A DNA stretch of 64,000 nucleotides from Octopus vulgaris (taxonomy: Eukaryota): assembly GCA_951406725.2 (NCBI GenBank), contig OX597832.1, forward strand, positions 14,074,001 through 14,138,000, in the 5' to 3' direction. Below the pieces are notes generated by a model. The model saw nothing but the letters and a program-made list of their open reading frames with translations, ran no database searches and was not told the DNA's origin. This document shows positions 1-41,018 of this stretch, piece after piece. Numbering within the stretch: position 1 is the first letter of the stretch; each line of letters starts with the position of its first letter. Both the position numbers and the translations under genes were made by a program.

Positions 1-1468
1 ACAAATACTTAGGAATCCATGAACTAGATAAGACACAACACACACAAATGAAAGAGAAAATAAAAAAAGAATATTATAGACGAGTTAGATCAATACTAAA
101 CACAGAGCTCAATGCTAAAAACAAGATAATAGGTATCAACACTTTAGCTGTCCCAGTTATAAGTTACAGCTACAATATCCTTAACTGGACACGAAATGAA
201 CTGACCAAAATAGACAGGAAAACAAGAAAAATAATGAAAGGATCTAGGATGCATCACCCAAAATCTGACATAGAAAGACTATATATACAACGTATAGAAG
301 GTGGTAGAGGCCTTATACAGCTGGAAAACTACTATAAAATAACCACCATAGGACTGCAAAAATATCTACTTCAGAAGGAAGGAAAACTGATCCAGATAGC
401 GGCAAAACACGAGCAAAACAAAAAACTGTTCTCAGTATTTAAGGAAGCTGAGAAATACAAACAAGAAATCATACCACCTAATAAACATGAAGAAGAAGAA
501 GAAGATGAAGAAACAACAAAAGCTATAAAAAAATGAAATCCAAACTAAAAATAGAACAGCAACGAACCATGATAAAACGATGGCAAGAAAAGCCCCTTCA
601 TGGTAAATACTGGACTAAACTAAACGCAAAAGAAATAGACAAAGAAAAATCCCAGCAATGGTTGAGAAGCTCAGGACTCAAAGCAGAAACAGAGGGATTT
701 TTAATTGCAGCACAAGACCAAAGCCTCCCCACAAGAAATTACCAAAAACATGTAATGAAAAGAAATATTACAAGTAACTGCAGAATATGTGGAGATGGAC
801 AAGAAACAATAAATCATATTACCTCTAGCTGCCCAGTCCTGGCTAAGAAGGAATATATTCACAGACATGAAAGAGTTGGAACTTACATACATTGGAAGCT
901 ATGCCAACATTATGGAATAACAACAGAAAAAAGATGGTATAGGCACACACCAGAAAAGGTCACAGAAAACGAGAAAGCAACCATACTCTGGGATATGCCG
1001 ATACACACAGATAGAGAAATTAAGGCCAACAGACCAGATATAGTTGTCAGAGACCATGAAGAAAAAAATGCTTTCTAATTGATGTATCAGTACCGGCAGA
1101 TGACAACGTGTCTCTAAAAGAAATGGAGAAACTCTCAAAATACAAAGACCTGGAAATAGAGGTAACTAGAATGTGGAATCTGAAAACAGAAACAATTCCT
1201 ATCATAGTAGGTGCATTAGGCATGATAAAAAAATATTCAGAAAAATACATAACAAAAACACCAGGACTTACACACACATATAACATACAGAAAATTGCAC
1301 TACTAGGCACTGCACACATCCTACGCAGAACACTTTCCATACAATAACCATCAGAGCATCACAACAAATCACAGCACATACCCAAGGCACACAGAGCTGC
1401 GCTCGGTAGTGAAGTGAAAGCACGCTATAAAAATAAAAATAAAACTACTGAATAATAATAATAATAAT
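1..1468 (+). mobile_element. R4/Dong-clade non-LTR retrotransposon, 3' part (RT end, CCHC zinc knuckle, restriction-like endonuclease, 3' UTR, (AAT)n tail); frameshifted; runs off window start
   Basis: Frame 3 from nt 3 reads KYLGIHE (RT motif 7), then GGRGL, CRICGDGQETINHITSSC (CCHC), RHERV, RPDIV...LIDVSVP...KEMEKLSKYKDL (PD-(D/E)xK RLE). Stop at 1345-1347, then 3' UTR and (AAT)n at 1451-1468. Frameshifts near 530 and 1068. Confidence 0.92.
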
Positions 1469-2497
1469 AACAAAAAACTGTTCTCAGTATTTAAGGAAGC
1501 TGACAAATACAAACAAGAAATCATACCACCTAATAAACACGAAGAAGAAGAAGATGATGATGAAGAAACAACAAAAGCTATAAAACAAATGAAATCGAAA
1601 CTAAAAATAGAACAGCAACGAACCATGATAAAACGATGGCAAGAAAAGCCCCTTCATGGTAAATACTGCACTAAACTAAACGCAAAAGAAATAGACAAAG
1701 AAAAATCCCAGCAATGGTTGAGAAGCTCAGGACTCAAAGCAGAAACAGAGGGATTTTTAATTGCAGCACAAGACCAAAGCATCCCCACCAGAAATTACCA
1801 AAAGCATGTAATGAAAAGAAATATTACAAGTAACTGCAGAATATGTGGAGATGGACAAGAAACAATAAATCATATTATCTTTAGCTGCCCAGTCCTGGCT
1901 AAGAAGGAATATATTCACAGACATGACAGAGTTGGAACCTACATACATTGGAAGCTATGCCAACATTATGGAATAACAACAGATAAAAGATGGTATAGGC
2001 ACACACCAGAAAAGGTCACAGAAAACGAGAAAGCAACCATACTCTGGGATATGCCGATACACACAGATAGAGAAATTAAGGCCAACAGACCAGATATAGT
2101 TGTCAGAGATCATGAAGAAAAAAATGCTTTCTAATTGATGTATCAATACCGGCAGATGACAACGTGTCTCTAAAAGAAATGGAGAAACTCTCAAAATACA
2201 AAGACCTGGAAATAGAGATAACTAGAATGTGGAACCTGAAAACAGAAACAATTCCTATCCTAGTAGGTGCATTAGGCACGATAAAAAAATATTCAGACAA
2301 ATACATAACAAAAACACCAGGACTTACAAACACATATAACATACAGAAAATTGCACTACTAGGCACTGCACACATCCTACGCAGAACACTTTCCATGCAA
2401 TAAACATCAGAGCATCACAACAAATCACCACACATACCCAAGGCACACAGAGCTGCGCTCGGTAGTGAAGTGAAAGCACGCTATAAAAATAAAACTA

Positions 2498-2538
<41 letters not shown>
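1469..2538 (+). mobile_element. Second, 5'-truncated copy of the same R4/Dong element, directly after the (AAT)n tail of copy 1
   Basis: Begins AACAAAAAACTGTTCTCAG (equals nt ~417 of copy 1). Near-identical ORFs 1589-2134 and 2164-2403, same 3' UTR, (AAT)n tail at 2501-2538. Confidence 0.92.
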
Positions 2539-36354: not shown

Positions 36355-36385
<31 letters not shown>

Positions 36386-36421
36386 TACGACTATATATAT
36401 ATTCATATTCTGTACCTCATT

Positions 36422-36475
36422 TATCACTGATGAGGGGAAGGTTCTTATGAACTAACTCTGAAATCGAGTCCGATA
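36422..36475 (+). ncRNA. Type I hammerhead ribozyme motif, family 2
   Basis: TATCA-CTGATGA-GGGG-aagGTTCttatGAACtaa-CTCT-GAAA-tcga-GTC-CGATA. Lies in a ~230-bp element (36400-36625) homologous to 39730-39965. Confidence 0.72.
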
Positions 36476-36911
36476 TGATAATAACGGGATTTTTTTAGAA
36501 ATTTCTGTCGGCTTTCTTTGAAACACGTGCTTGTAGTAACGAATTATAATGGTTATTGATTTTGTGACTATTTTCGGCATATTTTGGCATTGGAGATTTT
36601 TTTCTTTTGCTCTTACTTATAAATTATATATATATATGAATAGGTTTGTATGTTTGTATATGTGTGTGTCATAATTCTTCGTATGTATATGCATTCATGC
36701 ACCTTTATATATGCATTGAATCATTATACACACACACATACACACATACACACACATACACACATACACACACACACATATCTATATATATATATGAATA
36801 CATATATATCTATATGTACATAGAAGTACGTACACCAATGTGCACACACATATAAGAACACACTCATATATGTATAAGATGTAACCTCAGGTGATCTTTG
36901 GTTATTTTTTG

Positions 36912-38794: not shown

Positions 38795-39650
38795 TATATC
38801 AACCGGTTTCGCTTTCACTATTCATGACATTAAGATTTAATTATTTAATTATTTAATTACGCATTTTCTTAAGAAGAAATATTTTGGGTTCCTGTTGTGT
38901 GTGGTATTTTTGAGTGAATGATAGAAACACTAGTAAAACAACGGGGAGGTAATTGATATTTGGTTTGATGTTACCTGCACATTCCTCACTTAGAGGAATT
39001 TGTCTGTATTGCGTGAGCCAGTTCTGCACTTTATATAGTGTGTTTCTCCGTTGCAATGTCATACTCGTCTGTCTAATAAACTGTTATCCATAAATCGAGC
39101 ATGTTATTACATAAATTAGGTTCTCAGAGGCACAAGTGAAACTGATTTTAATTTGAACATCTCTCCACTATTCGGGCGTCCGCATTTTTTAAGCGTTGAT
39201 TTCGTGGTTCTTTTGAAAAGCTTTGCATTTGTTACATGTCTCTTTAGCGATTTGTATTGCTCTTTGCATTTGGTTAGTTTATGCGTTTTCAGGATGTTGT
39301 TAAATTTTGTATCTCTAGTTACTAAAGGGAGATTTTGCACCATAGTCATATATGCCTCACTGTGTCTAGGATTGTGGGTCGATATAAACAGTAGTGTTTT
39401 GAGATATGATGTGGTGGTGTGCTTCATTGTCCTTAGTGCTTTATGGCTAATTTCTTGGCACGCTTAATTCCTTCGTCTAGAAGCCAGCGTTGTTTTGATG
39501 TTTTGAAGACGAAGGTCCCGAGTTGTTCTGTCAGACACTTTTTTGCAAATCCTTTTTGCTAAATTAAGCAAATTAAATGGGACATATAGTTCGACGTCTC
39601 GGTTGGCATGAGCTATAGAGAAGATATTGTTTCGAGTTCGAAGGTTTATA
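38795..39650 (-). mobile_element. Penelope-like retroelement 3' fragment (RT thumb and GIY-YIG endonuclease), decayed
   Basis: Minus strand YKPSNSKQYLLYSSCQP, VPFN..LAKRICKKVSDRTTRDLRLQ, HNP, KCGRP, then FTCASENLIYVITCSIYG*QFIRQTSMTLQRR (GIY-YIG pattern IY.I.C..C...YIG.T...L..R). Confidence 0.85.
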
Positions 39651-39693
<43 letters not shown>

Positions 39694-39777
39694 ACTAATG
39701 TATATATATATATATATTTATAACTAATGTAGGATAACATGGGTATGAGTAAGTATTTCACTTATATCTCACGTATT

Positions 39778-39830
39778 TATCGCTGAAGAGGAGAACATTC
39801 TTTGGAATTAACCCCGAAATTGGACCAATA
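39778..39830 (+). ncRNA. Hammerhead motif family 2, second copy (cleavage triplet mutated to GAC)
   Basis: TATCG-CTGAAGA-GGAG-aacATTCtttgGAATtaa-CCCC-GAAA-ttg-GAC-CAATA. Confidence 0.6.
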
Positions 39831-39966
39831 CGGTAATAACGGATTTTTTTAGAAATCTCTATCGGTTTGTTTCGGGATGCATAAGTTATAATGGTTATTG
39901 ACAATTTTTGTATTTTTTTCGGTATATTTGGCATTGGAATCTTTCTTTTGCCCTTATCTTGTAAAT

Positions 39967-40044
<78 letters not shown>

Positions 40045-40339: not shown

Positions 40340-41018
40340 ATTATTATTATTATTGTCATTTTCTTTTAATCTGCATGTTTGATGCAATCACCTGTCGGGG
40401 CACACCCAGCGGCCTAGGGCAAGTGAAGGTTAAGAGTTGTTGAAATATAGCTGAAAGCTTGGGGAGGGGAAGTAGAGATATATCTCCATGTAATGCAAAC
40501 ACAGACACTTACATTGATAGGGTTTTTTCTAAGGATGTGGGCAGTACTTGTTAGCACAATCTTTTGGATTTCCTTGCGACATGGTTTTCCAGGGATATTG
40601 TCTAGGTGTTTCTGACATCCCTTTTTTATCATACCTAGGGCACCTACAATAACAGGAACAGTTTTTGTTTTAAGATTCCACATCCTCTGTATTTCGATTT
40701 CCAGGTCCTTATATTTACTAAGTTTGTCAAATTCCTTGACAGATACATTTTTATCAGTGGGGACGCTTACTTCTATTAGTCTGCAGGTATTTTCTTCCCT
40801 GTCTTTAACAATTATGTCTGGTCGATTAGCCTTGATCGTTCTGTTGTTGACTGGAAAATCCCAGAGGATGGTGACATCTTTACCTCAACAACTGGCTGAG
40901 GATGGTGTTCATACCAGTTATGTCGGATTTGTAGTGTTTGATATCTTCCAATGTATATACTGTCCTACCCTATCGTGGCGATTTTTGTATTCGTTTGGTG
41001 TCAGCACAGGACATCCCG

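Follow-up and report, generated by a model that had tools for sequence, protein, structure and literature searches.

The closest described systems are the non-LTR retrozymes of metazoans, which are non-coding, low in GC and self-paired, carry one canonical type I hammerhead, coexist with Penelope-like elements (PLEs), and are proposed to give tandem cDNA by reverse transcription (RT) from a circular template (Cervera and de la Pena 2020, PMC7229834). In that paper, circles were shown in coral, mussel and axolotl, closure by a host ligase was shown in vitro for other retrozymes, and the stated size is 150-450 bp (350-390 bp in mussel), with units in long arrays (PMC7229834). A preprint on vertebrate retrozymes describes non-LTR units of 51-972 bp, type I hammerheads, many dispersed monomers and a PLE as the proposed mobiliser (Li, Clavereau and Pollet, bioRxiv 10.64898/2026.07.22.740005). 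For PLEs themselves, a purified element (Poseidon PAc) was reported to cut both strands, to extend each of them, and to begin copying at two internal positions of the RNA (PMC11167929); inverted 5'-truncated partners and a (TA)n bias are PLE traits (Neptune and Naiad, PMC8557442). The octopus family described here is probably a new non-LTR retrozyme family that joins a full type I hammerhead to a Penelope-like insertion footprint; the class itself is known. Our literature search found no description of the octopus family, and Repbase, Dfam, subscription journals or supplements may hold one.

The window, that is, the whole stretch of DNA analysed, comprises 64,000 nt of the forward strand of Octopus vulgaris contig OX597832.1 (positions 14,074,001 to 14,138,000); the host genome is 2.8 Gb and microsatellite-rich. 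Two copies, A and B, were the sole plus-strand matches in a scan for the hammerhead core plus stem II. With a probability of about 0.8, we read them as 5'-truncated copies of a non-coding, circularly permuted, 467-478-nt non-LTR retrozyme with a predicted AUA cut, whose RNA ring would enter (TA)n through a Penelope-like RT/endonuclease; the cleavage, ligation, circular RNA and mobilising PLE of this cycle are inferred. The two copies and their surroundings are as follows.

36355..36381, no strand: (TA)n tract 5' of copy A, presumed target site
36408..36627, plus strand: probable retrozyme fragment of subfamily A (copy A), monomer 411-478, then 1 to ~150 of the 478-nt circularly permuted unit
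36626-39: TA tract 3' of copy A, presumed target site
39648-39717 and 39973-40042: TA tracts either side of copy B, presumed target sites
39687..39702, minus strand: second, shorter inverted piece from end site 2, monomer 216-231, within the TA tract
39716..39740, minus strand: short inverted arm of copy B, monomer 207-231 (96%, E 1e-5)
39738..39970, plus strand: probable retrozyme fragment of subfamily B (copy B), monomer 375-467, then 1 to ~140 of the 467-nt unit

An earlier note on this DNA had paired 36400-36625 with 39730-39965 as homologous elements lying between TA tracts, and both points hold: tracts flank each copy, and the two are homologous by blastn (E 1e-30, 71% identity including flanks) and by alignment. 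The intervals do mark homologous stretches, but their ends are truncation points inside the longer 478/467-nt unit. Matched by blastn to natural monomers cut from other loci, copy A is 92.6% and 87% identical (monomer from L015), and copy B 94.6% and 90.7% (monomer from L033). Each window copy spans ~220 or ~230 nt of the unit; because each thus holds one ribozyme and under half a monomer, the window copies would be dead-end products. The family was also said to be unrelated to a first hammerhead family in the window, and no similarity to family-1 elements better than E 0.076 was found. The family-1 cores (12507 and 41771, plus strand; 40171, minus strand) have GAAAC and a short stem II; they bear no relation to family 2 and resemble the minimal type I hammerheads that PLE repeats typically carry. 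The window further contains, at 3-2526 (plus strand) and 40414-40884 (minus strand), what we take from their motifs to be fragments of restriction-like-endonuclease non-LTR retrotransposons; the fragment at 3-2526 carries a 1052-bp tandem duplication.

A pattern of core plus stem II, 35 positions long, gave 912 exact matches in the genome versus 0 for a reversed control; 912 is a lower bound, since the pattern omits subfamilies C and F. Each window copy retrieved its own subfamily at 89-94% identity among the best 40 of 2145 and the best 40 of 2659 candidates, and copy counts rest on the core pattern and these best-40 BLAST lists; the 2074 and 2280 first-look candidates for C and F are not copy numbers. 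Sequence downstream of the copies leads back into their upstream sequence, which defines a circularly permuted unit of 478 nt in subfamily A and 467 nt in subfamily B, with monomers 80.7% identical. Tandem periods agree (478-479 for A, 466-468 for B, mostly 450-530 for C and F), and one locus, L074, has more than three laps. The longest stop-free frame in the unit is 59 aa (A) or 64 aa (B), so that it is non-coding; its GC content is 0.34 (A) and 0.32 (B), and its circular fold has a z of -3.4 (A) and -4.1 (B) against 40 shuffles each, indicating strong self-pairing. There is one type I hammerhead per short unit in tandem, and partial tandems are common; no long arrays occurred in the loci fetched, and no terminal repeats besides the permuted overlap in the loci inspected. 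Non-LTR retrozymes as a class lack an LTR, PBS and PPT, show long target-site duplications where they have any, and are expressed as monomer RNA in both linear and circular form; inside (TA)n a target-site duplication would leave no readable trace.

In being non-coding, low in GC and self-paired, with one type I hammerhead and PLEs in the same genome, the octopus unit resembles the metazoan retrozymes, and in its hammerhead type, dispersed monomers and proposed PLE mobiliser it resembles the vertebrate ones. It differs from the metazoan retrozymes of PMC7229834 in several respects. It exceeds their stated size range, and where they form long arrays it occurs mostly as short partial tandems and dispersed pieces of less than a monomer. 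Its 3' ends fall at fixed sites, its targets are (TA)n, its arms lie head-to-head, its triplet is AUA, and its stem II continues beyond an AA/AA internal loop. Circular RNA, shown for those retrozymes, is predicted for the octopus family.

Two side observations concern transcription. A B-box-like word, GTTCGAATC, lies at ~+280 of monomers A and B and was present in 36 of 59 A loci and 39 of 83 B loci; it was seen in only 1 C locus and 2 F loci out of 30 each, many of which may not cover that part of the unit. The T runs, of which there are many, speak against transcription of a full lap by Pol III. Contigs of four sequencing runs guessed to be RNA cover the unit, though contigs cannot show ends, strand or circles; summed unit depth relative to a PLE ORF was 2.3-5.8 in three guessed-RNA runs versus 5.3 in a DNA-sized run, and contig depth cannot rank them.

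The hammerhead consensus is C3 U4 G5 A6 N7 G8 A9, G12 A13 A14, A15.1-U16.1 and H17. Both window copies carry a core of this kind: CTGA(T/A)GA and GAAA, as had been noted, lie at 36427/36460 in A and 39783/39816 in B, and N7 is T in A and A in B; among the core-pattern matches N7 takes all four bases. After GAA comes a hairpin, AUCG/CGAU in subfamily A and AUUG/CAAU in subfamily B, and this sets the register of the revised fold, in which the triplet is AUA and stem I is UUAUC(A/G) paired with (U/C)GGUAA.

36421..36481, plus strand: predicted type I hammerhead of copy A, cut site taken from the hammerhead consensus
36421-26/36476-81: stem I of copy A
36427-33 and 36460-62: core CTGATGA and GAA of copy A
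36434-37/36456-59 and 36440-44/36449-53: stem II of copy A, with an AA/AA internal loop between its halves and loop TTAT
36463-66/36471-74: stem III of copy A; predicted cut after AUA, between 36475 and 36476
39777..39836, plus strand: predicted type I hammerhead of copy B
39777-82/39831-36 and 39783-89: stem I and core CTGAAGA of copy B
39790-93/39812-15 and 39796-800/39805-09: stem II of copy B
39819-22/39826-29: stem III of copy B, loop GAC; predicted cut between 39830 and 39831

The grouping of motifs in the earlier note implies a minimal hammerhead instead, with a 2-bp stem III, C(G/A)ATA as stem I and a cut after GUC. Copy A alone can be drawn in this way (TATC/GATA, GTC). Across 73 distinct copies, however, that register leaves stems I and III 80.8% and 84.2% paired, against 99.1% and 97.5% in the revised one, with pair 2.1/1.1 unpaired in 49 of the 73; the supposed triplet G(T/A)C is GAC or GAT in 30 of 30 subfamily-B copies, where it lies in the loop of the 4-bp stem III, and the would-be U16.1 is A in all 30. 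The same register fails in subfamilies C and F, and we regard it as scarcely tenable. The fragment 36422-36475 that had been put forward for a cleavage assay stops on the predicted scissile base and so has only one strand of stem I, the 3' one being absent; an assay of it would come out falsely negative.

In the revised fold, 95.4% of 1591 cells are paired over 80 aligned copies (73 distinct), versus 27-44% in slid controls; stems I, II and III reach 99.1, 96.9 and 97.5%. The three stems stand in type I order with stem I open, at 95-99% pairing against 27-51% for the slid controls. Canonical, non-minimal type I hammerheads have a tertiary contact that joins a loop in stem I to loop II. In the octopus fold, stem I has an internal loop with a conserved UAA and a distal 3-bp helix (80.8% paired), and stem II carries the AA/AA internal loop. 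The core is intact in 72 of the 80 copies, and intact with no broken pair in 50. Copy A belongs to the latter kind, and its private changes are predicted to favour a rival hairpin over the core; in copy B two stem II pairs are broken by private changes. The core is less variable than the downstream sequence both in subfamily A (5/324 versus 159/3355, P 0.005) and in subfamily B (1/330 versus 61/3027, P 0.03). When four copies were folded in isolation by minimum free energy, the hammerhead did not appear, and Rfam gave no hammerhead match in 36395-36630 at E up to 10; over the whole window, the 150 of 229 Rfam rows listed were microsatellite-driven miRNA/snoRNA matches.

A compensatory change between the copies had been reported in the inner part of stem II, and it is present as described (GTTC/GAAC at 36441-44/36449-52 in A; ATTC/GAAT at 39797-800/39805-08 in B). 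This paired G-C to A-U change is not private to the window copies but a difference between subfamilies. Subfamilies A and B differ at 10 of 38 paired positions, with four double changes (2.1/1.1, 10.1/11.1, the inner stem II pair and 15.3/16.3), two further one-sided changes that keep pairing, and no breaks. The probability of at least four doubles was 0.0035, and none broken in addition was seen 14 times in 1,000,000, values that are optimistic, since A and B themselves had guided the choice of stems I and III. Subfamilies C, F and G, which came to light once the structure had been fixed, provide an out-of-sample check. In 33 copies selected from seven subfamilies, 99.1% of the 320 cells of stems I and III are paired, 7 of the 10 pairs are double-changed, and A15.1-U16.1 is invariant. 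In a set of 23 copies that includes C, D and E, 9 of 19 pairs change on both sides; F and G were left out of this set because their stem II is in another register.

A pair-count measure did no better than column shuffles (132/500 for 80 copies, 132/500 for 33, 187/500 for 23), and these covariation controls ignore relatedness among the copies; the double changes amount to a handful of subfamily-level events, many of them transitions. The four A/B double changes and the 9 of 19 pairs support the view of an independent hammerhead-bearing family whose RNA structure was under selection: the fold appears to be conserved by compensatory change across subfamilies, so cutting probably matters. Any such selection would have operated on the source RNAs rather than the window copies. 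In subfamilies F (L244-L273) and G (L153:854-932 and 439-517) the triplet is AUC and one additional A separates stem II from G12, and G has the core CCGAUGA with a C-A mismatch at the base of stem II; both are possible core variants. The B unit is present in sequencing runs under four organism labels, and related species could supply more covariation.

The manner of insertion was examined in 96 segments of subfamily B. They come from the first 100, in genome order, of the 366 places that match exactly a 24-base word immediately 3' of the cut. Eighty-five of the 96 end at one of two sites (40 at +135-152, site 1; 45 at +229-235, site 2), and a TA tract follows within 16 nt of the end in 35 of 49 cases at site 1 and 41 of 53 at site 2. 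Both window copies end at site 1 and run into (TA)n. TTATA is present at both end sites, and a short stretch of homology to (TA)n could therefore serve for priming; but no segment of the same sample ends at the TATA word that lies at +327, so that structure or protein binding, not homology alone, probably sets the two sites. The 5' ends are scattered, and 84 of 91 segments read through the predicted cut site. A pile-up of 5' ends at the cut, such as a linear cleaved template would leave and single loci had suggested, was not significant (7/91 versus 4.8 expected, P 0.20).

A head-to-head inverted second arm was counted by eye in 31 of the first 60 loci (two pairs of loci being duplicates), and the second arms themselves end at one of the two preferred sites. 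Copy B is an example: its arm at 39716..39740 lies on the other strand, starts at site 2 and faces the main arm head-to-head, and the piece at 39687..39702 matches at 16/16 positions (E 0.024), which is weak taken alone. Internal RT start sites, 5' truncation, partial tandems, an inverted partner and a microsatellite target together make up a PLE mode of insertion. In PMC11167929 and PMC8557442, PLEs likewise show two internal RT starts, extension of both strands, 5' truncation, partial tandems, an inverted 5' partner and an AT-rich or (TA)n target. The octopus unit differs from them in having no ORF and a full rather than minimal hammerhead, in end sites ~90 nt apart versus start sites 30-40 apart, and in the TTATA at both ends, PAc having started without homology (PMC11167929).

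A scan for GIY-YIG proteins, in which 150 of 6136 candidates were scored, led to a young intact PLE family with a 781-aa RT plus GIY-YIG ORF. Its elements, like those of the retrozyme, are found in this genome inserted in (TA)n, and they show partial tandems. At L307:244-5460 and L304-L311, a separate 479-aa ORF of no clear family precedes the 781-aa ORF; this family has a 504-bp identical partial tandem and (TA)n targets, and an alternative 3' end of the family weakly resembles retrozyme end site 2. Comparison of the 781-aa PLE with the unit gave no meaningful shared sequence and no canonical hammerhead core in the PLE repeat, and the 44 PLE loci were without a family-type hammerhead, except for an independent B insertion next to one element.

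The insertion footprint would also be expected if the unit were the solo pseudo-LTR (pLTR) of a coding Penelope-like element that its hammerhead serves. A broken, 5'-truncated PLE fragment (38859-39647, minus strand; RT end plus GIY-YIG, ~40% identical to the 781-aa family) abuts copy B head-to-head across a TA tract, and Xenopus retrozymes are related to pLTRs according to bioRxiv 10.64898/2026.07.22.740005. Both ends of the octopus unit, however, lead back into the unit and not into an ORF. PLE protein matches were found in the fetched flanks of 8 of 273 family loci, and in 0 of 273 did a PLE C-terminus run into the unit (by coordinates, with two PLE proteins as queries); the RT plus GIY-YIG ORF that an autonomous PLE has between pseudo-LTRs was not found. 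Moreover, PLE hammerheads are usually minimal and without helix III (PMC6155905), and the unit has a 4-bp stem III. We consider a solo pseudo-LTR very improbable. In the vertebrates, the preprint links retrozymes to PLEs through co-occurrence and pLTR homology; no pLTR homolog of the octopus unit was found, and the link here is the insertion footprint.

How a retrozyme could give rise to such insertions may be pictured as follows. A source with two ribozymes would be transcribed and both ribozymes would cut, and a host ligase would close the monomer into a ring. A PLE protein would then nick both strands of (TA)n, and each of the resulting 3' ends would prime cDNA at one or the other internal site. 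Either cDNA would stop early or lap the ring more than once, and the two arms would join head-to-head. Arms and laps of the same insertion are closer to each other than to copies at other loci (126 of 151 pairs below the between-locus median). After 34 duplicate loci had been dropped, rare variants were shared within an insertion 10- to 17-fold above expectation (subfamily A: tandem 52 versus 3.0 expected, inverted 23 versus 2.4; subfamily B: tandem 43 versus 2.8, inverted 72 versus 4.3), in a test whose pairs are not independent and whose B set has a few D-type loci mixed in. Such sharing could also arise by gene conversion, by local duplication, or if the units of a tandem source were themselves identical.

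The main rival to the ring is a linear uncleaved multimer, a read-through transcript of tandem sources that would be copied by the same PLE partner, the ribozyme serving to trim or being slow. The 84 of 91 segments that cross the cut site would arise from uncleaved RNA as well; most copies are under 1.5 units, and two same-strand dimers occur among the 100 core matches listed. PMC11167929 also reports that a PLE used uncleaved RNA in vitro and that ribozyme cleavage was unneeded for insertion, so read-through of the cut site alone is no proof of a ring, and the Xenopus preprint found just 1 of 9 predicted retrozyme dimers to be cleaved (bioRxiv 10.64898/2026.07.22.740005). Against a linear template stand the fold kept by compensatory change, through which cutting probably matters, the private variants shared ~15-fold above expectation by laps of one insertion, the shortening of sources in each generation that 5' truncation would bring without a ring, and the circles known from coral, mussel and axolotl (PMC7229834). 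On this evidence we judge a linear template unlikely. The fullest form of the ring reading is held tentatively, at a little under even odds: each insertion may have been written by a Penelope-type dimer that copied one ribozyme-made ring, with priming from both strands of a cut (TA)n at two starts defined by structure, in a family of at least six subfamilies with an AUA/AUC hammerhead and an internally looped stem II.

The return of animal retrozymes to the genome has been a proposed step, and the octopus family gives it named parts: a unit, a predicted cut, two start sites and a target; the intact PLE proteins of this genome are candidate partners. Its hammerheads, of the full type I form with compensated stems and an uncommon triplet, make up a natural series as well. 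If each insertion does derive from one ring, the rolling-circle copying that has long been postulated for retrozymes of animals would have left a direct footprint in the octopus genome.
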